This document shows positions 34,831-64,000 of a stretch of 64,000 bases of DNA, piece after piece. Below the pieces are notes generated by a model that saw only the letters and a list, made by a program, of their open reading frames with translations, did no database searches and had not been told where the DNA came from. A program made the translations under genes and the position numbers. This DNA is from an uncultured bacterium (lineage in GTDB: Bacteria > Oederibacteriota > PGYV01 > CAWJRG01). The stretch's first letter is position 1. Every line of letters begins with the position of its first letter. The stretch is taken from contig CAWJRG010000005.1 of NCBI GenBank assembly GCA_963845185.1, positions 512,001-576,000 on the forward strand. The letters are read 5' to 3'.

Positions 34831-36213
34831 TTATCTTTTTCCCACCTTTATGGTAAGTGTGTTGTTTTTCCCCTTTACGACCGTGACAGGCTTGGCGTTA
34901 TCTTTTACAATCGTTGCCTCGATTGTGATGATGTAAGCGCCCAGGGAAAGTTTATCAAATACAAAATGCCCGTTACCGTCAGCAATTGTGCTTGTTATAG
35001 TATTTGTTTTGCTGTTTATGGCTTTGACCAAGGCATTTTTATAAGGGTCATTGCCGAGAAAGACATCTCCTTCGAGCCTGGATGTTTCGAGGACTTTTAC
35101 AGGTTTGGCTTTATGCTTGCTGGATTTTTTCTTTGGCGTTGCCGTAGCTGTGACAGTCGGTGTCGCTGCGATTATTGTGGTCGCTGCGGCTGTAGTTGTA
35201 ATAACAGGCGTGGATGTGTGCTCTTCTTCTGGCGCCAGTACAAGCGTAGGTGTTATAACAACCTGCCTTTGTTTCTTTCCGATTTCGAGATTAAAAGGCC
35301 AACCCGCAACATCAATATCGTAAATTACCTTATTCATGCTCGGGTCAATTACAGACACTTTTCCTTTTTCTTCATCCGCTATATATCCGCAAATAAAAAT
35401 CTTGTCGCCTGCCGGTACCTTACCATAAACGCAGTCATACATCACGTAATTATTGTCTATATTTGCCGTTTTTGAAAGCGATTCCACGTCATAAACTTCC
35501 ACCGCATCCATTACCGTAACATAAATACTGTCGTTGTAAAACGCTATCCCCCTGGGTGTCTTTGAAGTTTTAATAGTGCTTTTTAAAAGGCCTGTTTTGA
35601 CATTTATCACAGATATTGTATCATCTCCCGAATTCGTAACGTAAAGGGAATCACCATTTATTGCCATTCCCCACGGCCTGTCGCCCACCGGTATGGTGTC
35701 CAGTACTTTTTTATTCACAAGCGACACTATGGCAACTGATGCCTTGTCCCAGAGTGCAACAAATGCTTTTCCGTTTTCTTCAGAGAGTACTATTGCCCTC
35801 GGGCTTCCGCCAACATCGAGCGGCTCGCCGTCAATTTTAAAATCAGGCAAACTTATGAACGATATATTATTGGATTTGCTGTTGCTGACTATTATGCCGC
35901 TGTTGTCGTTTTTAATGGCAAGCTGTACTGGCGAATAACCGACATTGACAAAATCTTTTGCTACTGAGAAATCCGATGTTTTCATTCTGTAAATCGAGTT
36001 GTTGTCGGAACTGGCAAAATAAAGGTATTTTCCATCCGGCGATAATTTCATGCCCTTGATATTTGCGTTGCCTGTTACCTCGGTTACTATGGTGTTGTTT
36101 GCCGTATCCATGATTGAAATTTTGTTAAACTGGTTGTGTGAAATAAAAAGGTATGGCGACGAAAACAAAAACGCAGGCAATGATAAAAACAGCAGAATAA
36201 TAAGCTTTTTCAT
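34831..36213 (-). CDS. Exported YVTN beta-propeller protein with Thr-rich linker and carboxypeptidase-regulatory-like domain
   Basis: Signal MKKLIILLFL; LYVTNSGDDTISVI; ADGNGHFVF. Confidence 0.8.
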   Translation of the reverse strand: MKKLIILLFLSLPAFLFSSPYLFISHNQFNKISIMDTANNTIVTEVTGNANIKGMKLSPDGKYLYFASSDNNSIYRMKTSDFSVAKDFVNVGYSPVQLAIKNDNSGIIVSNSKSNNISFISLPDFKIDGEPLDVGGSPRAIVLSEENGKAFVALWDKASVAIVSLVNKKVLDTIPVGDRPWGMAINGDSLYVTNSGDDTISVINVKTGLLKSTIKTSKTPRGIAFYNDSIYVTVMDAVEVYDVESLSKTANIDNNYVMYDCVYGKVPAGDKIFICGYIADEEKGKVSVIDPSMNKVIYDIDVAGWPFNLEIGKKQRQVVITPTLVLAPEEEHTSTPVITTTAAATTIIAATPTVTATATPKKKSSKHKAKPVKVLETSRLEGDVFLGNDPYKNALVKAINSKTNTITSTIADGNGHFVFDKLSLGAYIITIEATIVKDNAKPVTVVKGKNNTLTIKVGKR

Positions 36214-36311
36214 TTGTTTCCTCCTTAGATTTCGTTTGCTTTGCCAAGCTGTCAACAGGTAATATCAATTTACAACATTGCTTTGTATTTTGCAATTTAA
36301 ATCACTTCTGA

Positions 36312-38512: not shown

Positions 38513-40039
38513 TTATTTTTTCTCGTTTATCAGTCTTCTTATCTCTCTTTTTATTACCTTGCCCGTGCCTGTTTTCGGCAATTCCGGCCAGAACTCAAAC
38601 CTGTGCGGCACCTTGAAATTCGCCAGGTGCGGCCTGCAAAACATTTTTAACTCTATCTCCGTGGCAATCATGCCGTCCCTTAGCTTGACGACACACACCG
38701 GCACTTCCCCGTGTACTTCGTCTTTTTTCCCTACCACAGCCGCGTCCTCAATTGCCGGGTGTCTGTACAAAATATCCTCGACTTCCCTGGGATACAGGTT
38801 CATGCCGTTGACAAGGATTAAATCCTTTTTTCTGTCGAGTATATAAAGATAGCCTTGTTCGTCAATCTTTCCTATATCGCCGGTCAGGAGCCACCCGTCA
38901 TTCATCACTTCTTTTGTTTCTTCAGGCCTGTCGTAATAACCTTTCATGACATTTGGCCCGCTTACTGCTATCTCACCTGCCTCATTTGTTTTCAAATCTT
39001 TGCCATCCTCATCAACTATTTTTATTTTTACACCTGGAATTGGCGGGCCCACCGAACCTATTTTTCTTACGCCTTCAAGGGGGTTTACAGAAACCACGGG
39101 AGACGCTTCGGAAAGACCGTAACCTTCCAGAAGTGGTATTCTGAATTTCTCCTCAAAATTTTTCAAAACTTCAGCTGAGAGTGGTGCGGCGCCTGATACG
39201 CATACCCTTATAGGGTTAAACCAGAGCAGTAGTTTTGGTATTCTTTTACCTGATAACACGTTGTATACCGGAGGTATAGCTATAAACACAGTAATCCTTT
39301 TAAACATAATTGCCTTTATTATCTTCCCGAAAGGTTTTACCGACTTGAGGATTACCACCGTGCAGAACATATATAGGGGTATGAGAATACACACTGTAAA
39401 AGCAAACGAGTGGAACATCGGCAGAAACAGGATAAACCTGTCCTTTTCAACGACTTCTATTCTTGTTATTGATGAATCAGCATTGGATATCAGATTTTTG
39501 TGTGTTAGCATGGCGCCTTTAGGATGCCCTGTCGTGCCTGAAGTGTAAATGATTACTGCGGTTTCGTTTTCATCCATATCAGCAGCCGGTTCAATTGTAC
39601 CCAGCTTCATTATATCTTTATATTGAATATATTGCTGTCCGTCCATCCTGTCGGTTGCTATTATATTTTCAAGGCTTGGCGTCGAGTTTTTCTTAAAATC
39701 CTTCATTACTTCCGAGCAATCCGACGAGGTTATTAATATCTTGGCTTTTGCGTCGTTCAAAATATAGACTATTTCTTCAAGGCTTAAAAAATTATTCAGA
39801 GGAATTACTATTGCGCCTGCCCTTATGGCCGCAAAATAGCAAATCACAAATTCTATGCTGTTGCATAAAAAAAGTGCTATTTTGTCTCCCTTTTTTATGC
39901 CAAGCTTCGTAAATCCCGAGCTTAAGCGCTCCATATCTTCCTTAAACTTTTTAAATGTCACTTTTTCTTTTTCAAAAATTAAAAATGCCTTGTTCGGTCG
40001 TTTTTCGCTTGCCCTGTTTACAGCGTCAATTAAAGTCAT
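38513..40039 (-). CDS. fadD: Long-chain fatty acid-CoA ligase
   Basis: YTSGTTGHPKG, EGYGLSE, TGDIG, GKV. Confidence 0.88.
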   Translation of the reverse strand: MTLIDAVNRASEKRPNKAFLIFEKEKVTFKKFKEDMERLSSGFTKLGIKKGDKIALFLCNSIEFVICYFAAIRAGAIVIPLNNFLSLEEIVYILNDAKAKILITSSDCSEVMKDFKKNSTPSLENIIATDRMDGQQYIQYKDIMKLGTIEPAADMDENETAVIIYTSGTTGHPKGAMLTHKNLISNADSSITRIEVVEKDRFILFLPMFHSFAFTVCILIPLYMFCTVVILKSVKPFGKIIKAIMFKRITVFIAIPPVYNVLSGKRIPKLLLWFNPIRVCVSGAAPLSAEVLKNFEEKFRIPLLEGYGLSEASPVVSVNPLEGVRKIGSVGPPIPGVKIKIVDEDGKDLKTNEAGEIAVSGPNVMKGYYDRPEETKEVMNDGWLLTGDIGKIDEQGYLYILDRKKDLILVNGMNLYPREVEDILYRHPAIEDAAVVGKKDEVHGEVPVCVVKLRDGMIATEIELKMFCRPHLANFKVPHRFEFWPELPKTGTGKVIKREIRRLINEKK

Positions 40040-40053
40040 GAACTTCCTCCAAT

Positions 40054-40215
40054 GATATCGTTTGTTTTGTCAAGCTGGATAGCGCAGACAAAACATTACG
40101 ATATCTTGCACCCATTCCAGTCCGGGGCTTTAGCCAGTTAAATAATCCGGTGGATTATTTGACGGGTAGTTTCTCTAAAGTCATTTAATATAAAAACTGC
40201 CCAGACAAGTGGTGC
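40054..40215 (-). ncRNA. Leader motif A copy 1 (upstream of fadD), element B inserted in hairpin 1
   Basis: GCACCACTTGTC..GGACTGGAATGGGTGC AA GATATCGT AA TGTTTTGTC..GACAAAACA A ACGATATC, then GGAGG. Confidence 0.7.
40135..40204. mobile_element. Element B copy 1 (double hairpin, flanked by CAG repeats)
   Basis: Near-identical to 62642-62710. Confidence 0.7.
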
Positions 40216-53565: not shown

Positions 53566-54390
53566 TCATTTTAACGGCAATACTTCATTCATGCTTCCGC
53601 TGCGGAAGCCTTCAATATCCAGTGTTATATACTTGAAGCCAAGCTTTTTAAGCCCGTTTACTATCCTCATCCTGTTTTTCTGTGACAGGAGGATTTTGAA
53701 TTTGTCCGCATCAATTTCTATCCTTGCGGTATCTCCGTAATGCCTTACCCTCACCTGTTTTAATCCCATATTTTTAAGAAGTTTTTCCGCTTTTTCAACG
53801 GTTACCAGCTTTTTAATGGTTATCTCATTATAATAAGGGATGCGTGAGGCAAGGCAGGCAGCCGCAGGCTTGTCCCATGTTTTTAAGCCAATTTTTTTGG
53901 ACAATAAACGTACATCTGCCTTTGTAAAGACTGCTTCAGCCAGCGGGTGCCTCACTCCTGCCTCGCTTGCGGCTCTAAGCCCGGGCCTGAAATCCCTGAA
54001 ATCATCCGCGTTTGCGCCGTCAGCCAGCCATTTGATATTTTTTTCCCTGGCTATGCCGAGCATTTTCGAAAACAGCTCTGCCTTGCAGAAGTAACACCGC
54101 TCAGGCGGGTTGTTCTTGAAATCTTTGTTTTTGAGTTCCTCTGTTTGCATGATTATGTGTCCCTGCTTGTTTCCTCTTGCATATTTTTTCGCTTCAGAAA
54201 GTTCCTGTTTTGTGTAAGTTTCCGAAACCGCGGTTACAGGCAATACTTCGCATCCTTTTGTTTCCTGCGCAGCTTTCAGCAGGAACGTGCTGTCCACTCC
54301 GCCCGAATAAGCCAGTATAAATCGCCCCATTTTTTTCAGTATTGCCCGGAGATGTTTGTATTTTAACGAAATTACATTTTTATTACTCAT
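53566..54390 (-). CDS. larE: ATP-dependent sacrificial sulfur transferase LarE family
   Basis: AYSGGVDS, RCYFCK, DFRPG, CLASRIPY, RVRHYG, GFRSGSMN. Confidence 0.9.
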   Translation of the reverse strand: MSNKNVISLKYKHLRAILKKMGRFILAYSGGVDSTFLLKAAQETKGCEVLPVTAVSETYTKQELSEAKKYARGNKQGHIIMQTEELKNKDFKNNPPERCYFCKAELFSKMLGIAREKNIKWLADGANADDFRDFRPGLRAASEAGVRHPLAEAVFTKADVRLLSKKIGLKTWDKPAAACLASRIPYYNEITIKKLVTVEKAEKLLKNMGLKQVRVRHYGDTARIEIDADKFKILLSQKNRMRIVNGLKKLGFKYITLDIEGFRSGSMNEVLPLK

Positions 54391-54462
54391 ATATTCTCCT
54401 ATTTTTAATCTTTTGGATTTTACTTATTTTATCACCCCTTCTAATCCAAAACAAGACAGTAT

Positions 54463-54491
54463 TTGATTTTAGTAACAAATGTTGTTAAAAT
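54463..54491 (+). promoter_or_regulatory. sigma70-type promoter ahead of motif A/glpK
   Basis: TTGATT-N17-TAAAAT with TG extension. Confidence 0.55.
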
Positions 54492-54508
54492 TAATCAGTA
54501 TTATAACC

Positions 54509-54605
54509 GCACCACTTGTCCCTCGCAAGCTCGGGACTTGAGCGGGTACAAGATTCCGTAAGATTTTATCTTCGCTGTTGACGCTTGATAAAATCAACGG
54601 AATCT
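54509..54605 (+). ncRNA. Leader motif A copy 2 (upstream of glpK)
   Basis: GCACCACTTGTCCC..GGGACTTGAGCGGGTAC AA GATTCCGT AA GATTTTATC..GATAAAATC A ACGGAATC, then GGAGG. Confidence 0.75.
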
Positions 54606-54618
54606 ATGGAGGTAAGCT

Positions 54619-56127
54619 ATGTCCGAAAAAAAATACGTTGGAGCAGTTGACCAGGGCACAACAAGCACAAGGTTCATGCTTTTTAATAGAAGCGGCGATA
54701 TTGCGGCCGTGCACCAGGTTGAGCATAAGCAGATTTATCCCCAGTCCGGCTGGGTAGAACACGACGCTATGCAGATATGGAACAATACCAAGGAATGCAT
54801 AAATCAGGCGCTATCAAAATCAGGCATCAAGCCTGAAGAAATCGCGTCAATAGGTGTCACAAACCAGCGTGAAACCACCGTTGTCTGGGATAAAACAACC
54901 GGCAAGCCTCTGCATAACGCCATAGTCTGGCAGGACCTGCGCACAGCAGATATCTGCGCGGAACTATCAAAAAAAGGAGGGCAATACAGGTTTCAGAAAA
55001 CAACAGGCCTGCCACTCGCCACATATTTTTCCGGCCCGAAATTGAAATGGCTGTTTGACAACAAGCCAAAAATAAAAAAAGCAGCCGAATCAGGCACTGC
55101 CCTTTTCGGCACAATGGACACGTGGATAATATGGAACCTGACAGGTGGCGCTCACGTTACTGACCCCACAAACGCAAGCCGCACCATGCTCATGGGCTTA
55201 GGCACATTGAAATGGGACAAAAAAATGCTGGGAATATTCGGCATACCTGAAAGCATTTTGCCGGAAATCAGACCGTCGTCAGACCCTAAAGCATACGGCA
55301 TTACACAGAAAACAGGCCCGTTTGGCGCTGAAATACCCGTAATGGGCGACCTCGGAGACCAGCAGGCAGCCTTGTTCGGACAGACATGCTTTGAAAAAGG
55401 CACGGCAAAAAACACTTACGGCACAGGATGCTTTTTGCTTTTAAATACAGGAAACAAACCTGTTTTTTCCAAAAACGGCCTGATTACAACAGTCGGGTAT
55501 AAAATCGGAGACTCGCCGGTTGTATATGCCCTTGAAGGTTCCATAGCAATAGCAGGCGCGCTTGTCCAGTGGGTGCGCGATAAGTTAAAACTAATTACCT
55601 CTGCCCCTGAAATCAATGACCTCGCAATGCAGGCATCTGATAACGGCGGTGTTTATTTTGTACCTGCGTTTTCCGGGCTGTTTGCTCCCTACTGGCGCAG
55701 CGACGCGCGCGGCATTATTGCCGGCCTCACCCATTACACAGGCAAAGAGCATATTGCACGCGCAGCGCTTGAGGCCACGGCATATCAGGCGCGCGAAATT
55801 TTTGAGGCAATGGAAAAAGACTCTGGCATAAAACTCGCCTCATTAAAAGTAGACGGAGGTATGACAGCAAGCGAACTTCTGATGCAGTTTCAGTCAGATA
55901 TATTAAATGTACCTGTCTCCCGGCCAAAGGTCGCCGAGACAACCGCGCTTGGAGCCGCTTACGCCGCAGGCCTGGCAGCGGGCTTCTGGAAATCGCAGGA
56001 AGAGCTAAAGGCAAACTGGATTTTGTCAAAGCAGTGGCAGCCTAAAATGGCCGCTGACAAGCGGGAAAAGTATTTCAAAGAATGGAAAAAAGCAGTGCAG
56101 AAGTCTTTGGGGTGGATGGAAAAATAA
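54619..56127 (+). CDS. glpK: Glycerol kinase
   Basis: [32 protein letters not shown]. Confidence 0.97.
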
Positions 56128-56154
56128 ACTCGCATTAAAAAAAGGTGAACCCGG

Positions 56155-57615
56155 TTGAAAAATACTTACGATATTATAATCATAGGTTCAGGCATAGTAG
56201 GCTCTTTGATAGCCCGCTATTTGTCCCGCTACGACATATCAGTGCTCGTCGTTGAAAAAGAAATCGACGTTGGCATGTGCCCCTCCTCTGCCAACTCAGC
56301 TATCATCCACTCCGGTTTTGACCCAAAGCCCAGCACAGTAAAAGCAAAAATGAATGCCACTGGCAACAAGCTGTGGTATTCCCTTGCGCCAGAGCTTGGC
56401 ATTGTTTTCAAGCAGACCGGCAGTTATGTCGTATCTATCGGCGAAGCAGAATTCAAGCGCCTGCCCGAGCTTTTAGAGCGCGGCAAGCTAAACAATGTGC
56501 CTGGCGTGGAAATAATAAACCGTGACGAACTGCTGCGGCGCGAGTCATTGATAAATCCCGAAACATCAGGCGCACTCTGGGCACCGAGCGCGGCAGTTAT
56601 TGACCCTTTTGGTGCCACGCTTGCCGCTGCTGAAAATGCGGTTATAAACGGCGTTAAATACATGTTCGAGACCGAATTCAAAGAATTTATTTTTGAAGGC
56701 ACCAAAGTCATAGGCATAAAAACAAATAACGGTGATTTTTATTCGCGCTGGGTCATAAACTCAGCCGGATTATACTCTGACAAGGTTGCGCATAAAGCAG
56801 GCGCACGAAAGGAATTCGAAATAATACCAAAAAAAGGCTGCTATCTTATTTTTGACGCTGCGAAATTCATAATAAACAGCGTGCTGTTCCAGCTTCCCAC
56901 CGAACAATCCAAGGGCATACTTGTCTCCACCACCACGCACGGCAATGTAATGATAGGCCCTGACAACGCACCTTGTGAGGGTAAGGACGACACCGCGACA
57001 ACAGCCGAGGGCCTTGAAAGAATCATACAGGGTGGAAAACGGCTTATCCCCTCCCTTGACCCGAGAAACACCATAGCCATGTACGCCGGTATAAGGGCAA
57101 CCGGCAACGGAAGCAGGGATTTTATAATTGAAATGCCCAAAGAAATCCCGGGTCTGCTGAATCTATGCGGCATTGAATCCCCGGGCTTTGCGTCCGCACC
57201 TGCAATAGCGCTCGAAGTAATAGAAATGCTCAAGAACGCCGGCGTGAAATTAAATGAAAAGAAAACCTGGAACCCTGTCCGCAAGCCATTCCCGCACTTC
57301 CACATGATGAAGCACGAAGAAAAGGAAAAACTTGTAAAATCAAACCCTGCGTACGGCAGGATAATGTGCAGGTGCGAGGAAATAACCGAAGGAGAAGTGC
57401 TTGACGCCATACATTCGCCTGTGCCTGCGCGCACCTATGACGGCATAAAAAGGCGGACATGGCTTGGAACTGGCCGCTGCCAGGGCGCTTTTGACTACCC
57501 GCGGGTGATAAGCATACTCGCCCGCGAGCTCGGCATACCCGAGACAGAGGTTACAAAAAAAGGTAAAGGCAGCGAACTGGTGTTTAGAAAAACCAAGGAC
57601 GTAACTTATGAATAA
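56155..57615 (+). CDS. FAD-dependent glycerol-3-phosphate dehydrogenase-like subunit with BFD-like [2Fe-2S] domain
   Basis: GSGIVG, SSANSAIIHSG, CRCE, GRCQG; follows glpK. Confidence 0.85.
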   Translation: MKNTYDIIIIGSGIVGSLIARYLSRYDISVLVVEKEIDVGMCPSSANSAIIHSGFDPKPSTVKAKMNATGNKLWYSLAPELGIVFKQTGSYVVSIGEAEFKRLPELLERGKLNNVPGVEIINRDELLRRESLINPETSGALWAPSAAVIDPFGATLAAAENAVINGVKYMFETEFKEFIFEGTKVIGIKTNNGDFYSRWVINSAGLYSDKVAHKAGARKEFEIIPKKGCYLIFDAAKFIINSVLFQLPTEQSKGILVSTTTHGNVMIGPDNAPCEGKDDTATTAEGLERIIQGGKRLIPSLDPRNTIAMYAGIRATGNGSRDFIIEMPKEIPGLLNLCGIESPGFASAPAIALEVIEMLKNAGVKLNEKKTWNPVRKPFPHFHMMKHEEKEKLVKSNPAYGRIMCRCEEITEGEVLDAIHSPVPARTYDGIKRRTWLGTGRCQGAFDYPRVISILARELGIPETEVTKKGKGSELVFRKTKDVTYE

Positions 57616-58924
57616 AGAATATGATGTAATAGTCATCGGCGCAGGGCCTGCAGGGCTTGCAGCCGCCATAGAAGCGAAAAAAACAGGCGCAAGCGCACTT
57701 ATAATAGAAAGGAACGACGAGCCCGGCGGCATACTTCCCCAGTGCATTCACAATGGTTTCGGCTCAGTACTTTTTAAAAAAGATTTGCCCGGGCCAAACT
57801 ACGCATGGAATTTCGTAGAGGAAGCTGAAAAATTCGGTGTTGAAATGCTGCTCGATACTTTTGTCCTTGATATTACCGACAATAAAACAGTGTATGCCAC
57901 AAACAGCCGCGAAGGTTTCCTTGAACTCAATGCAAAGGCAATTGTGCTTGCAATGGGCTGCAGGGAGCGAACAAGGGCGCAGATAAGGATACCTGGTGAC
58001 AGGCCGGCAGGCGTTTTTACCGCAGGCATGGTGCAGAGGCTGGTAAATATCGAGGGTTTTATGCCCGGCAAAAATTTCATAATACTTGGCTCAGGCGACA
58101 TAGGCATGATAATGGCTCGGCGGCTCACGATTGAAGGCGCAAAAGTAATTAAAGTAATCGAACTCATGCCTTACTTGACAGGGCTTCGCAGGAATTATGT
58201 GCAGTGTCTGCAGGATTTTGACATTCCCCTTTCCCTGTCCACCACAATAAAGAGAATAATCGGCAAAAAACGTGTCGGGGCAGTTGAGACAATAAAAGTT
58301 GACGACGGTTTGAGTCCAATCACCGGCACCGAAGAAACAGTCCCATGCGACAGCGTGCTTTTGTCTGTCGGCTTAATTCCGGAAAACGAGCTTTCAAAAA
58401 AAGTTGGCGTGTTGCTTGACCCTTTGACCGGAGGCCCTGTCGTGGATGAAAACATGGCAACGAGCGTGCCAGGAATATATGCAGCGGGTAATGTCGTCAC
58501 AATTTACGACCTTGTTGATTATGTCTCAAAAGCAGGCTTTATCGCAGGCAGAAACGCGGCTCTTTACGCTGCAGGCAAAACCCAGCCCGCGCAGTATGTT
58601 GAAATAAAGCCCGGCGACGGCATACGCTCGATCATGCCGCAGCGGCTAAGTAGAGACGGGGCTCTGTCCCTGTCTCAGCAGGAACCAAGACAGGCGCAAG
58701 GGCCTGTCTCTACGCAGGAAATACTCCTCGAACTGCGCGTTTCAAAGGAATTCCCCGAAAAAATATCAATAGACCTTATAGACCGGGACAAAACAGTGCA
58801 GTCTTTCAGGCAAAAATATGCCCGACCAGCTGAAATGATTACACTTAAAATAAACCCTCAGGAATTTGCGGCAAAGCTCTCGTCGGCCACGTCGGAAATC
58901 ACTGTACGAATAAAAGAGGTTTAA
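57608..58924 (+). CDS. NAD(P)/FAD-dependent oxidoreductase, partner subunit
   Basis: GAGPAG, GGILPQCIHNGFG, MGCRER, GSGDIGMIMARR. Confidence 0.88.
   Translation: MNKEYDVIVIGAGPAGLAAAIEAKKTGASALIIERNDEPGGILPQCIHNGFGSVLFKKDLPGPNYAWNFVEEAEKFGVEMLLDTFVLDITDNKTVYATNSREGFLELNAKAIVLAMGCRERTRAQIRIPGDRPAGVFTAGMVQRLVNIEGFMPGKNFIILGSGDIGMIMARRLTIEGAKVIKVIELMPYLTGLRRNYVQCLQDFDIPLSLSTTIKRIIGKKRVGAVETIKVDDGLSPITGTEETVPCDSVLLSVGLIPENELSKKVGVLLDPLTGGPVVDENMATSVPGIYAAGNVVTIYDLVDYVSKAGFIAGRNAALYAAGKTQPAQYVEIKPGDGIRSIMPQRLSRDGALSLSQQEPRQAQGPVSTQEILLELRVSKEFPEKISIDLIDRDKTVQSFRQKYARPAEMITLKINPQEFAAKLSSATSEITVRIKEV
58650..58713. repeat. GTAG-type REP doublet inside the coding sequence
   Basis: GTAGAGACGGGGC..GTCCCTGTCTC ... 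AGACAGGC..GCCTGTCTCTAC. Confidence 0.75.
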
Positions 58925-58927
58925 AAT

Positions 58928-59302
58928 ATGGAACGAAAATTCATCTGTATCCGCTGCCCCGAAGGCTGCGAAATTACCACAACCATTGACGGTTACGGCA
59001 ACGTAACTGACATAAAAGGCAACTCCTGCAAGCTCGGCATTGAGTATGTAAAAACCGAGGCAACAGACCCGCGCCGTACCCTGACAACCACGGTAAAAGT
59101 GGAGGGTGGAGCCTATCCCCTTTGCCCTGTCTGGAGCGAAAAACCCGTGCCAAAGGATAAAATAATGGATCTGGCAGTCGAACTCCGCAAAATCACTCTA
59201 AAAGCGCCTGTAAAGATCAACCAAATCGTGCTGGAGAACGCTTTAGGAATTGGCGTGAATATTATCGCTTCTTGTGATATAATTAGTATTGAAAAGAAAT
59301 AA
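58928..59302 (+). CDS. DUF1667 Cys-rich small subunit
   Basis: CIRCPEGC, GNSCKLG, PRRTLTTTV. Confidence 0.88.
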   Translation: MERKFICIRCPEGCEITTTIDGYGNVTDIKGNSCKLGIEYVKTEATDPRRTLTTTVKVEGGAYPLCPVWSEKPVPKDKIMDLAVELRKITLKAPVKINQIVLENALGIGVNIIASCDIISIEKK

Positions 59303-59310
59303 ATATTAAA

Positions 59311-59409
59311 GTACCACTTGTCCAAACCTACAGTCTGGACTTGAGCGGGTACAAGATAGCGTAATGTTTTGTCAGAGCCTGTTGACGTCTCGACAAAACA
59401 AACGCTATC
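59311..59409 (+). ncRNA. Leader motif A copy 3 (upstream of response regulator)
   Basis: GTACCACTTGTCCA..TGGACTTGAGCGGGTAC AA GATAGCGT AA TGTTTTGTC..GACAAAACA A ACGCTATC, then AGGAGG. Confidence 0.75.
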
Positions 59410-59426
59410 ATTAGGAGGGTAATAAC

Positions 59427-59828
59427 ATGGATAAAAAAACCATACTTGCAGTGGATGACGAACCAAATGTGCTTTCTGCAATCAAAGACACTTTAAATGA
59501 AAGATATAACGTAATCACGGCCAAAAACGGCAAAGAAGCCCTGAAGATGATAGACACCCACGCTCCTGACCTTATCATAATGGACGTGGTAATGCCTGAA
59601 ATGGACGGGCTTGAGGCAGTCAGGCGGCTGCACATGAAAAGCCCGTTTGGCCCTCCGGTCATTTTTTTAAGCGCAAAAACAGGAATCTCCGACGTGGAGC
59701 AGGGTTTGAAAGTCGGCGCGTTTGTTTACATGACAAAACCATTTTCGCCGTCACAGCTTGAAAAAAAAGTGGATGAAACTTTCGCAAGGATTGAAACAAG
59801 AAAGAAAATGCCGAAAAAGAACCCGTAA
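59427..59828 (+). CDS. Single-domain response regulator
   Basis: VDDE, MDVVMP, LSA, KPF. Confidence 0.92.
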   Translation: MDKKTILAVDDEPNVLSAIKDTLNERYNVITAKNGKEALKMIDTHAPDLIIMDVVMPEMDGLEAVRRLHMKSPFGPPVIFLSAKTGISDVEQGLKVGAFVYMTKPFSPSQLEKKVDETFARIETRKKMPKKNP

Positions 59829-59866
59829 ACTTCGCTTTTATTATTAACCCGCAAAAACTCCCAGTA

Positions 59867-60676
59867 TCATGCCTTTGCTTGCGGATGCGTCCTGTTGTAG
59901 CATGCCTGCACCAGCATTGGCAGCACTACCGCGTTTAAGGTTTGCATGGATAAAGAAGCGAATACTTTCGGCTTGTCGTTTTTTACCTTGTAAGTATACA
60001 CCCTGCCCTCGTAATACTGCGGTATATATATCTTGTCCGTCCACAGCACTTCTTCCCTGCCGCCGAATAGTTTCTTTTTTGAATAGCCGTTTTTTGACAA
60101 TTCAACGCTGCCTATTTTTACGGTTTTGCCGTATTCAAAAATTTCCTTCATGATTTTCGCCACAATAAACGGTTCAACATAAATTTTTGCAAATTCTATC
60201 ATTTTAAGATAAGCGTCCTGCAGTTTTTGATTGCCGATATAAAAAAATGATGCGAAATTTATGGAAATCTTTCCGTCTTCGCCTTTTATGCAGTATTTAA
60301 AGGTCTGCGATGTCGGGATAAGGTTGATTGTAATCTTCACGGTGTTATAAAAAATCCCGTTAATCCTGTTGTAATTGAGGATTGTCCCCCTGTATTCAAC
60401 GCTGTCCCTTTTAAATGTTAAAGGAGGCTTGCTCAGTACCAGCGGAACAAGAACAAACGGGTAAAAGCCTGCGTTTTGGTCAGGGCCCGTGCTTGTTTGC
60501 GGCGGCTGCCCTGAGTTATCAGTCTTTTTCCCCCGCAGAGAAATAAAAGTCATAATCGCGGCAAATGCCGCAAGCACAGCAGCTATGGCGATTGTTATTG
60601 CCTCGGTTTTTTTAAAAGCAAGAAAAGCTACAGCTAAAACTCCTATCCACAAAACGACAAGCTGGAATATGCTCAT
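59867..60676 (-). CDS. Hypothetical membrane-anchored protein
   Basis: Two N-terminal TMs, 269-aa ORF, purine-rich RBS. Confidence 0.7.
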   Translation of the reverse strand: MSIFQLVVLWIGVLAVAFLAFKKTEAITIAIAAVLAAFAAIMTFISLRGKKTDNSGQPPQTSTGPDQNAGFYPFVLVPLVLSKPPLTFKRDSVEYRGTILNYNRINGIFYNTVKITINLIPTSQTFKYCIKGEDGKISINFASFFYIGNQKLQDAYLKMIEFAKIYVEPFIVAKIMKEIFEYGKTVKIGSVELSKNGYSKKKLFGGREEVLWTDKIYIPQYYEGRVYTYKVKNDKPKVFASLSMQTLNAVVLPMLVQACYNRTHPQAKA

Positions 60677-60754
60677 TTTATTTTTCCTTTCCTGTTTTAT
60701 TATCAGCCTCTTTAATCATCCTGCAACCAAAAGTTACGGCATGCCTTTTTAAAA

Positions 60755-60940
60755 TTATTGTTCCCCTTCCTGCAAAATTTCAACCTGCACGTCCTTATCA
60801 ACCATATTCCTGAAATTTCTCGCTGCATTTTTGCCAAGCTCATAGTGCATCGGGATTGCCACGTTCGGTTTCATTTCGTTTATCATTGCCGCGGCCTGCT
60901 TGGGGATATCGCCGCTGCTTTTGAAATTAATAAGTGCCAT
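60755..60940 (-). pseudogene. C-terminal fragment of an MBL-fold (UPF0173-like) hydrolase
   Basis: AAAMINEMKPNVAIPMHY; the HxHxDH portion is absent. Confidence 0.6.
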
Positions 60941-60975
60941 TGTATTTTCTTCTCGTTTTGCTTTTTTCTTTTCAA

Positions 60976-61003
60976 TCTAAAATTTGCAGTCTAAAATCTA
61001 AAA
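60976..61003. repeat. TCTAAAA heptamer array downstream of xth
   Basis: tctaaaa tttgcag tctaaaa tctaaaa. Confidence 0.6.
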
Positions 61004-61765
61004 TTGTACTTCTATGCCTACAGGGCAATGGTCCGAGCCCATAACTTTGGCGAGTATAAAAGCATCTTTAAGGTTTTTTTTCATGTTATCGCTTATGTAA
61101 AAGTAGTCTATCCTCCAGCCCACGTTCCTTGCCCTTGCCCCGCTTTTAATGTCCCACCAGCTGTAATTGTTTGGTTCATTGTTGAACTCCCTGAACGTAT
61201 CGATAAAACCCATAGATAGGAATTTGTCTATCCAGGCGCGTTCTTCCGGTAAAAAACCGGAAACCTTGGAGTTTTCTTTCGGCCTTGCCAGGTCTATTTC
61301 CCTGTGCGCGGTGTTCACATCCCCGCATACTATGATTTTTTTGCCTTTGTTTTTCAGTTTGACGGCATAGTCAAGGAAAGCGCCGTAAAACTGCATTTTG
61401 TATTTTAGCCTGTCCGGCCCTGACTTGCCGTTTGGGAAATAAATGTTGAATAGCGTGAAATCCCTGTATTCGGCTATCTGTATCCTGCCCTCGATGTCGA
61501 ATTTTTTCACCCCAAACCCGGTTTTTATTTCAGCAGGTTTTTCTTTTAAAAACAGCGCCACCCCGCTGTAGCCTTTTTTGCCTTTGGATGATTCAAAATA
61601 GGAATTATAACCTTTGATATTTTTTATTTCATCCGGTACCTGGGATTCGTCGGCTTTTGTTTCCTGCACGCACAAAATATCCGGGCTGTCTTTAATGAGC
61701 CATTCCGTAAAGCCCTTTTTCGCTGCTGCCCTGATGCCGTTTACATTCCAGGATAGTATTCTCAT
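60998..61765 (-). CDS. xth: Exodeoxyribonuclease III
   Basis: SWNVNGIRA, QETK, GDVNTAH, GWRIDYF, SDHCP. Confidence 0.96.
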   Translation of the reverse strand: MRILSWNVNGIRAAAKKGFTEWLIKDSPDILCVQETKADESQVPDEIKNIKGYNSYFESSKGKKGYSGVALFLKEKPAEIKTGFGVKKFDIEGRIQIAEYRDFTLFNIYFPNGKSGPDRLKYKMQFYGAFLDYAVKLKNKGKKIIVCGDVNTAHREIDLARPKENSKVSGFLPEERAWIDKFLSMGFIDTFREFNNEPNNYSWWDIKSGARARNVGWRIDYFYISDNMKKNLKDAFILAKVMGSDHCPVGIEVQF

Positions 61766-61815
61766 ATTTCACCCTAAACTAGATTCAAAAGTCAAATCAA
61801 AATATATTTTTCTAA

Positions 61816-61843
61816 TCTAAAATCCAAAATCTAAATTCTAAAA
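61816..61843. repeat. TCTAAAA heptamer array upstream of xth
   Basis: tctaaaa tccaaaa tctaaat tctaaaa. Confidence 0.65.
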
Positions 61844-61845
61844 TA

Positions 61846-62595
61846 TTACTTCTTGGCCTTTCCCTGGTTTGCCACTGCTTCCATTGCCTTTTTGACTTCT
61901 TCAGGGTCACCGAGATAATAATTTTTTATTGGCTTTAAATTATTGTCAAGCTCGTAGACAAGCGGCATTCCAGTGGGTATGTTCAGGTGGACTATGTCCT
62001 GGTCAGAAATGTTGTCGAGGTATTTCACAAGAGCCCTTAATGAATTGCCATGGGCAGCAATCAGCACCCTTTTCCCCTTTTTAATTGTCGGCGCTATTTC
62101 TTTTTTCCAGAAAGGAAGAACCCTTGCCACAGTGTCTTTTAAACATTCCGTCAGAGGAACTTCGCTGGACTCTAATTCCTTGTACCTCGGGTCTTTTGCC
62201 GGGTTCCTCGGGTCGTCAGGCTCCAGCTTTGGCGGCGGCGTATCATAGCTTCTCCGCCATATCAAAACCTGCTCGTCTCCGTATTTCGCGGCTGTCTCTG
62301 CCTTGTTTAATCCCTGCAAAGCGCCGTAATGCCTTTCATTCAGCCTCCAGTTCCTTATCACGGGTATCCACATCAGGTCCATGCCGTCGAGCGTGAACCA
62401 CAGGGTCCTTATAGCCCTTTTTAAAACCGATGTGTAAGCAATGTCAAAAATAAAACCCGCGTCCTTTAAATAGTTCGGCGCCTTCTTTGCCTCTTCAATG
62501 CCTTTTTCCGACAGGTCGACATCTGTCCATCCTGTAAACCTATTTTCCTTGTTCCATGTGCTTTCTCCGTGCCTTAACAGTACGAGTTTATACAT
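61846..62595 (-). CDS. gpmA: 2,3-BPG-dependent phosphoglycerate mutase
   Basis: [29 protein letters not shown]. Confidence 0.97.
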
Positions 62596-62610
62596 TTTTT
62601 AACCTCCTTA

Positions 62611-62770
62611 GAGTCCGTTGATTTTGCCGAGCGTCAACAGGCAGTCAAATAGTCCTGTGGATTATTTGACGGGTAGTTTCCATAAGTTATCTAATATAAA
62701 AACTACCCAGCAAAATCTTACGGAGTCTTATACCCGCTCAAGTCCCGAACTTGTGAGGGACAAGCGGTAC
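62611..62770 (-). ncRNA. Leader motif A copy 4 (upstream of gpmA), element B inserted in hairpin 2
   Basis: GTACCGCTTGTCCC..GGGACTTGAGCGGGTAT AA GACTCCGT AA GATTTTGC..GCAAAATC A ACGGACTC, then AAGGAGG. Confidence 0.75.
62642..62710. mobile_element. Element B copy 2
   Basis: Near-identical to 40135-40204; CAG at both ends. Confidence 0.7.
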
Positions 62771-62777
62771 TAGTACT

Positions 62778-62829
62778 AAAAGAAAAGCCGCGCAATGAAA
62801 AATTAAATTTTCACAACGCGGCTTCCTTT
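62778..62829 (-). terminator. Intrinsic terminator after eno
   Basis: AAGCCGCG...CGCGGCTT stem followed by TTCTTTT on the minus strand. Confidence 0.75.
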
Positions 62830-62831
62830 AT

Positions 62832-64000
<1,169 letters not shown>

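Follow-up and report, generated by a model that had tools for sequence, protein, structure and literature searches.

What kind of sequence stands, four times within 64 kb and always in the sense of the next gene, immediately before the ribosome site of a different gene? The question is raised by positions 512,001 to 576,000 of contig CAWJRG010000005.1 (GenBank assembly GCA_963845185.1), a 64,000-nt stretch, hereafter the window, from the genome of an uncultured peat bacterium (label G000; 3.5 Mb in 11 contigs, 99.4% complete). The element is a two-hairpin module of about 100 nt, whose hairpins we call H1 and H2. A preliminary description, made from the letters of the window alone, proposed either an undescribed cis-regulatory RNA for several carbon-metabolism genes or a portable leader cassette bearing its own ribosome-binding site (RBS). 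We show here that the element belongs to an old, large, order-restricted family whose fold is under selection and whose members are gained and lost between relatives, and that in this lineage its copies sit strictly at ribosome sites in gene sense. The explanation we prefer, at a probability of roughly two in three, is a mobile structured leader repeat and not a riboswitch, the copies being insertions into sites with a Shine-Dalgarno sequence (SD) of their own.

The four copies lie where they had been described. The sequence reads there as quoted, including the stem pairs, the AA/A internal loop and the loop CTGTTGACG in three copies, and a covariance model of the element (R1) recovers the same four at 56-97 bits. 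It is also true of all four that they follow the sense of the next gene and end just before GGAGG: the distance is 1-3 nt, with 9-15 nt to the ATG and 6-9 nt from GGAGG itself to the ATG. The copy before the FGGY glycerol kinase gene is full length (54509..54607, + strand; R1 54505-54608, 97 bits), with H1 at 54509-54549, H2 at 54550-54605, the SD GGAGG at 54608-54612 and the ATG at 54619; a promoter-like TTGATT-17-TAAAAT upstream of it (54463-54491) ends 17 nt before H1. A second full copy (59311..59412, + strand; R1 59307-59413, 91 bits) occupies the gap between a DUF1667 gene, whose stop codon is 59300-59302, and the gene of a single-domain response regulator (H1 59311-59352, H2 59353-59409, SD AGGAGG 59413-59418, ATG 59427). 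The remaining two are on the minus strand and are split by another repeat, N. In the copy before an AMP-binding (fadD-like) gene (40051..40215; R1 40050-40157, 56 bits; H2 3' end 40054, SD 40046-40050, ATG 40037-40039) it is H1 that is split, and a promoter-like TTGACA-17-GATAAT lies 5' of the copy at 40272-40244. In the copy before a His_Phos_1 (gpmA-like) mutase gene (62608..62770; R1 62607-62774, 77 bits; H1 62770-62730, H2 3' end 62611, SD 62603-62607, ATG 62593-62595) it is the loop of H2; this copy lies directly 3' of a terminator-like hairpin after the enolase gene, which was seen by eye, the terminator scan reporting none. The 20-mer at the 3' core of H1, GGACTKGARYGGGTRYAAGA, matches the window four times (40104-40123(-), 54534-54553(+), 59337-59356(+) and 62726-62745(-)), where 0.05 matches are expected and none of 100 shuffles reaches four.

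Across the genome the family numbers about 150-200 members and at least 147. A degenerate form of the 20-mer matches exactly 61 times (reversed control, 0) and 153 times with up to three mismatches. An nhmmer profile built on 135 of these 153, the other 18 carrying a nested repeat or being cut short, gives 200 hits, among which interrupted copies count twice; R1 gives 147 matches from 150 candidates scored. The element has a G+C content of 43-47%. Identity to the nearest other copy has a median of 87%, and the single identical pair lies within a duplicated segment: the copies are old, with no recent burst.

Placement was assessed on the 157 hits extending to the H2 3' end, against 5000 random intergenic points and strands. 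An SD-like motif lies within 14 nt of 113 of these 157 ends (random, 5.7%), and an open reading frame (ORF) of at least 60 codons starts within 25 nt, again at 113 (random, 12.8%); both occur together at 103 (random, 2.2%) and neither at 34. The motif begins 1-3 nt past H2 at 100 of the 113 ends that have one (100/157 overall), and 12 of the 157 ends are followed by a further unit in tandem. Because a gene start lies behind 103 of the 113 SD-like motifs adjoining copies, versus 995 of 2630 intergenic GGAG (38%), the placement is at true ribosome sites and not at any GGAG. Most full-length copies (92 of 109) have a co-directional gene upstream, its stop codon no more than 30 nt away in 23 of these, and the remaining 17 lie in divergent promoter regions. 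Orientation tracks the gene, with a replication-strand bias no greater than that of the genes themselves (minority strand, 10/70 copies vs 356/1838 genes; p 0.36). The 30 nt before H1, read in 89 clean flanks of the 109 copies, are A/T-rich only, with A at position -1 in 61% and no conserved motif. A promoter within the unit, TTGACG-18-TATCAT, which fits the 59311 copy, was considered and rejected: promoter-like matches occur in only 13 of the 109 copies, so no conserved in-element promoter was found, and the start would fall inside the SD. An array of seven H1-H2 units with a period of exactly 100 nt lies upstream of a 1099-aa ORF (C9:916533-917180(-)). The covariance-model search and the table of downstream genes, both suggested as checks in the preliminary description, show copies that are dispersed, sense-oriented and linked to start codons, with neither random orientation nor a missing tie to gene starts.

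The genes served have little in common. Those behind 24 further copies are functionally unrelated to one another and include VIT/VWA, DUF2298, Mur ligase, LemA, FG-GAP, 3D, TMEM260-like and ABC ATPase proteins; a phosphofructokinase, a glutamine amidotransferase, an alcohol dehydrogenase, TPR proteins, a beta-CASP nuclease and a carbamoyltransferase; and a GFO/IDH/MocA oxidoreductase, an Orn/DAP decarboxylase, a HAD hydrolase, SecG and an FGE-sulfatase protein. That the window genes lean towards carbon metabolism thus comes from sampling.

The two hairpins are conserved in different ways. H1 is conserved in sequence (ACC.CTTGTC ... GACTKGARCGGGT); its lower stem and internal loop are nearly invariant, and its apical stem varies freely. 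H2 is conserved in shape, as two 9-bp helices around an internal loop of GTAA and AAC, both fixed. The apical stem of H1 and both helices of H2 covary; for H2 this had been claimed. Counted on 31 sequences (22 from G000 and 9 from relatives), 91.7% of cells are paired, compared with 75.6% in shuffled alignments, none of 500 shuffles reaching the observed value, and 33-43% when partners are slid. Covariation scores 0.39, where shuffling gives 0.12 and sliding 0.05-0.08, and 17 of 32 pairs have changed on both sides. In predicted folds the SD is unpaired with a probability of 0.56 in 80 leaders with the element, compared with 0.49 in 250 control genes with a GGAG SD (p 0.03) and 0.50 in the same leaders after removal of the element in silico (p 0.04). 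As the SD is predicted to be slightly more open with the element, nothing suggests a switch that hides it. Pairing of the CCTC in the apical stem of H1 with the SD was also considered; it is not conserved in the list of copies.

Filled and empty versions of the same site bear on how the copies came to be where they are. Relatives were found by a metagenome scan with the oxidoreductase adjoining the response-regulator copy (83%, 69% and 66% protein identity). In three of the relative loci (L082, L084 and L085) the response-regulator site is empty: the DUF1667 and response-regulator genes are adjacent, about 106 nt are absent exactly there, and the SD AGGAGG is kept with the bases after it. R1 finds no copy in L083-L085, and the leader of the glpK ortholog in L083 is short and free of the element, with a promoter (TTGACA-17-TAAAAT, by eye) and GGAGG. 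The reverse case is a full copy before a membrane-protein gene (L082:13783-13889(-)), whose ortholog in G000 (74% identity; C5:~694.5 kb) is empty and has the same SD, GGAGGTT.CAA. Since the empty orthologous site carries the same SD in three of three comparisons, the SD belongs to the host site, and at the level of sequence the comparisons show insertion of the element between leader and SD. A MITE would be expected to have terminal inverted repeats and a target-site duplication; the two ends of the element, GTACC... and ...CTATCA, do not form an inverted repeat.

Beyond this genome the family is confined to one order. Of 99 genomes of the phylum five contain the exact H1 pattern: G000 with 87 occurrences and four members of a single sister family with 1-10 each (reversed control, 0). 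Within the order R1 matches 12 of 24 genomes (1-18 copies each, G000 aside); it matches none of 75 genomes of other orders under stricter filters (39 candidates scored per genome). The element occurs in public records entered as candidate division FCPU426 or as uncultured bacterium. One copy, at fabG-acpP, is syntenic in five genomes of two families (L160:1501-1607(-), L150, L151, L161 and L162), where it runs antisense to the fab operon, the end of H2 overlapping the stop codon of fabG; G000 has no copy at this site. Among the five orthologous copies 15 of 35 predicted pairs have changed on both sides, so the fold is under selection at a fixed locus, independently of copying. In family f10 a promoter-like box (by eye) directly precedes H1 in the 13 loci examined, H1-H2 being followed by a terminator made of an A-run, a hairpin and a T-run; in 11 of these loci the element runs antisense to the genes on both sides. 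These copies look like independent small-RNA genes in their layout, and their terminators would work in both directions. In another family, f3, at least two of the four copies of genome G077 adjoin an SD and an ATG. The 23 neighbouring ORFs of sister-genome copies are diverse, apart from loci syntenic between species, and no partner protein gene recurs among them. Copies consisting of H2 only were seen in two loci, L149 (G078:C117) and L154 (G091:C62), between repeated coding pieces at a gene end; the pieces encode a Cys-rich C-terminus, ..CPECG..LEHEGGC..C..CGYSKC.

The element is itself a host for other repeats. Repeat N, of two hairpins (GGGTAG..CTACCC and GTCAAATAGTCC..GGACTATTTGAC), lies in the H1 loop of the fadD-like copy (~69 nt; 40134-40202(-)) and in the H2 loop of the gpmA-like copy (~67 nt; 62642-62708(-)), which is why these two copies are about 160 nt long. 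Of its 55 hits in the genome 17 are inside H2, 14 inside H1 and 23 have no H1-H2 element nearby; 31 of the 32 hits in or beside H1-H2 are on the same strand as the host element. The apical loops of both hairpins thus tolerate an insert of about 68 nt. A third, palindromic module (P), TAGGGGCGATTCACGAAT...ATTCGTGAATTACCCCTA, replaces the H2 loop in composite copies found before different genes in two genomes (G000 C10:~562410-562560(-) and L082:4610-4731(-)). Contigs from three peat-metagenome runs gave only short pieces in which paralogous copies are mixed; two of them skip 68 nt at 62640-62709, with four other letters between, and may represent family members without repeat N.

The window holds some further features. 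At 36211-36260(-) is a fifth copy, truncated, in which the loop and 3' arms of H2 run into TAAGGAGG and an ATG; nhmmer reports it (E 4.7e-4, model positions 74-120), and R1 does not recover it at E<=0.1. The glycerol kinase gene opens a cluster (54619-59302(+)) that continues with a DAO-family dehydrogenase with a BFD-like 2Fe-2S domain, a Pyr_redox_2 protein and DUF1667, an arrangement known from anaerobic glycerol-3-phosphate oxidation. Within the last DUF1667 codons, at 59270-59285(+), is an extended -10-like TG.TATAAT, invariant by eye in the window, L082, L084 and L085, which could be the response-regulator gene's own promoter.

We propose the following account of a mobile leader repeat. 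The module, in gene sense, sits behind a promoter or where two co-directional genes leave a short gap, and it ends 1-3 nt before the SD; from this position we infer that transcripts contain it as the final ~100 nt of their 5' leader. It would fold on itself and leave the SD single-stranded, which may be why it is tolerated. At most it may insulate the ribosome site against RNA lying upstream, protect the 5' end, stabilise the mRNA or offer a processing site. Its strict placement may mean that it lands preferentially in translation-start regions, or that in the long term copies survive only there. Given the relation to low-copy, fold-keeping syntenic copies in sister families, this is probably an old RNA element of the order that turned into a proliferating leader in this lineage.

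Several observations weigh against this account. Wobble pairs, tried as a guide to the strand of function, give no sense-strand signal: in 108 distinct copies G-U pairs show no excess over A-C on the sense strand (18 vs 18 in the outer helix of H2, 14 vs 24 in the inner). The antisense strand folds better, by about 1 kcal/mol per hairpin, in 71 of 108 copies for H1 and 67 of 108 for H2, so that the fold may act in DNA or on either strand. No RNA run was found to cover window positions 54000-63000, and the position of the element is the basis for predicting that it is transcribed; the predicted effect on SD accessibility is small. The filled and empty comparisons number only three, at 66-83% protein identity, and no target-site duplication is readable in the pairs, which are 17-34% diverged. 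The linker between H2 and GGAG goes with the H2 subfamily, for example CTC-TAA-GGAG and ATC-AAG-GGAGG (seen by eye and uncounted), so that part of the SD context may travel with the element. The copies are old and may no longer be mobile, and no mobilising enzyme was found in a search that took in Y1, TnpB-type and serine recombinase genes and left out tyrosine recombinases and DDE families.

Of the alternatives, the one that survives best is a domesticated global leader. H1 would then be bound in about 100 mRNAs by a dedicated factor acting in trans, either a protein or the ribosome; the factor would set their translation or stability, and the terminator-bearing free copies and the seven-unit array would serve as decoys, as CsrB does for CsrA. 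Such a role would fit an H1 lower stem and internal loop that stay almost invariant across the order when all else varies, and low-copy syntenic copies that keep their fold by compensatory change. It would also fit the stand-alone units with promoter-like box and terminator in sister genomes, the array of period 100, the predicted openness of the SD and the ratio of true gene starts behind the adjoining SD-like motifs, 103/113 against 38%. It sits poorly with the unrelated genes served, with sites that come and go between relatives, with two apical loops that both accept a 68-nt insert and with wobble pairs lacking a strand signal; no partner gene recurs among the 23 diverse neighbour ORFs. 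We regard it as possible but unlikely. A combined scheme, in which an order-specific small RNA became a self-spreading leader aimed at translation starts and the leaders, free copies and array together form a Csr-like network through one H1-binding factor, is likewise unlikely. If true, it would mean a regulon assembled by a mobile RNA module, and targeting of ribosome sites without any tested transposase family.

The element might instead act in DNA, as a palindrome that is a recombination or protein-binding site, or the single-stranded DNA hairpin of a lost IS200/IS605-type transposase; the RNA fold would then be a by-product, and the gene-sense orientation would come from a target next to CTCC on the other strand. 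The likeness to IS200/IS605 ends and their gene-less derivatives (PATEs) lies in a hairpin at each end, a fixed short motif adjoining one end and specific orientation. Two hairpins with a fixed neighbour motif would be expected under this explanation, which also draws on the slightly better folding of the antisense strand, on sister-family copies antisense to both neighbours (11/13 loci) and to the fab operon, and on a repeat N that enters in one orientation only (31/32 associated copies). Unlike IS200/IS605 elements, however, the hairpin foot lies only 1-3 nt from the neighbour motif, and there is no replication-strand bias beyond that of the genes. H1 has a U-G pair that 98 of 108 copies keep on the sense strand; read from the opposite strand it would become a C-A mismatch. 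Nor does this 99.4% complete genome hold a match to the Y1/HUH transposase PF01797 (TnpA; control positive in 6 of 14 reference genomes), to the TnpB-type PF07282 or to the serine recombinase PF00239 (control positive in 12 of 14). We consider action in DNA improbable.

Other potential movers were also looked at. Without a PF00239 gene, an IS607-type or serine-recombinase element was rejected. The IS110-family DEDD transposase has seven matches in G000, and four identical 1288-bp copies of such an element lie at C1:~323 kb, C5:~336 kb, C9:~330 kb and C10:~446 kb; it was rejected as mover, these copies adjoining another repeat, C/T-rich (..CACCCTCACCCT..CTCTCCC..) and without relation to the two-hairpin module. 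Also present is a ~1.9-kb group II intron, in six full copies and one shortened (C1:269894(-), C9:699945(+), C9:813074(-), C9:846914(-), C10:385218(-), C10:831397(+) and C11:63444(-)). All seven stand directly after GGAGG, a few bases and TATGA, and are followed by AAAAA and hydrophobic codons, so that the intron interrupts the ATG-AAA-AAA with which genes for secreted proteins or lipoproteins begin. It seems to home to the SD together with the start codon, and two of its copies lie directly behind an H1-H2 or N element.

Spelled out further than there, the portable cassette of the preliminary description would be a unit with its own SD that spreads by gene conversion, replacing the native leader and SD, like REP2 of Neisseria. 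One part of that proposal stands, namely the dispersed, start-codon-tied leader in gene sense, and it gains some support from a hidden Markov model consensus that runs on into TAAGGAGG and from the linker and SD flavour, which by eye go with the H2 subfamily. The RBS, however, is not brought at the sites compared: in 3/3 cases the same SD, with the bases that follow it, is already there at the empty ortholog. Moreover, the 34 copies with neither SD-like motif nor gene start end in ...ATC plus 1-3 nt with no GGAG after, and there is no conserved promoter in the unit (13/109 matches) or before it (no motif in the upstream 30 nt). A cassette in the full sense is thus very hard to uphold.

The search for a known RNA family can be stated briefly. 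Rfam at gathering score gave no match in the window or in four related loci, and at permissive E-values only chance hits on the window copy and terminator-hairpin hits in the relatives' loci; the earlier statement that this is no recognised riboswitch holds to that extent, and nothing in Rfam speaks against novelty. We found neither downstream genes of a single pathway nor an expression platform, be it an SD or a terminator switch. The cis-regulatory RNA first proposed for several carbon-metabolism genes is not supported, and a metabolite-sensing, riboswitch-like regulator of such genes is close to refuted: leader position, sense orientation, covariation and four window genes that do touch carbon metabolism speak for it, but at least 147 copies precede unrelated genes and are gained and lost among relatives, subfamilies differ in both stems, the loops take a ~68-nt repeat, orthologous leaders lack the element, and the SD is predicted to stay open.

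A mobile structured leader repeat has partial counterparts among known repeats. REPs are short G+C-rich palindromes found mostly at gene 3' ends and tied to a Y1 RAYT gene. With REP/BIME and REPIN-RAYT systems the element shares its nature as a short, structured, intergenic, high-copy repeat with a modular or mosaic build (H1, H2, N and module P) and tandem arrays; it differs in its length of ~100 nt, its 43-47% G+C, its place at gene 5' ends and the absence of a Y1 gene from G000. The BOX elements of Streptococcus pneumoniae and the mycobacterial MIRUs are modular, co-transcribed structured repeats, MIRUs lying between co-directional genes in gene sense, and phage T7 has intercistronic RNase III sites, hairpins with an internal loop that closely precede ribosome sites. 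We know of no report of any of these adjoining the SD at 1-3 nt in more than 100 genes. H2, with two helices and an internal loop, resembles the T7 sites, and any processing of H2 would be speculation.

Two published systems come closer in placement. REP2 of Neisseria was compared with the element by description. In a review (Delihas 2011; PMC3184786), REP2 is a repeat of 120-150 bp in ~26 copies that carries a promoter, an RBS and an ATG; as portrayed there, REP2 and the IR-A/IR-B repeats of Borrelia plasmids are, like our element, dispersed, with two internal stem-loops and no terminal inverted repeats, and lie directly before unrelated ORFs in gene sense. Unlike REP2, the element has ~150 copies, no conserved promoter and an SD that belongs to the host site (3/3); its stems covary in subfamilies, and it has low-copy, small-RNA-like relatives across an order. 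The abundant TAACTGA direct repeats of marine Beggiatoaceae, according to MacGregor 2015 (PMC4679880), form 169 sets a few nt upstream of the start codons of unrelated genes, with a suspected role in translation and no known mechanism of spread. As far as that account goes they are unstructured heptamer arrays, often replacing a canonical RBS, whereas the element is a folded 100-nt module before a canonical SD. No description of the element was found in the literature searched, which included a term search of the Goldbacteria paper PMC7031533, bioRxiv supplements lying outside the search.

These results carry a warning for the discovery of structured RNAs: leader position, sense orientation and strong covariation, by which a riboswitch is usually recognised, are all properties of a repeat that is gained and lost between relatives. 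In the annotation of this candidate lineage, knowledge of the family matters too, since its units otherwise resemble integron cassettes or regulatory RNAs. About 100 genes with the module 1-3 nt before their SD point to a way of aiming at translation-start regions or to a benefit from a folded insulator. Finally, the small-RNA-like syntenic relatives offer a rare view of a cellular RNA element becoming a proliferating repeat, or of the reverse.

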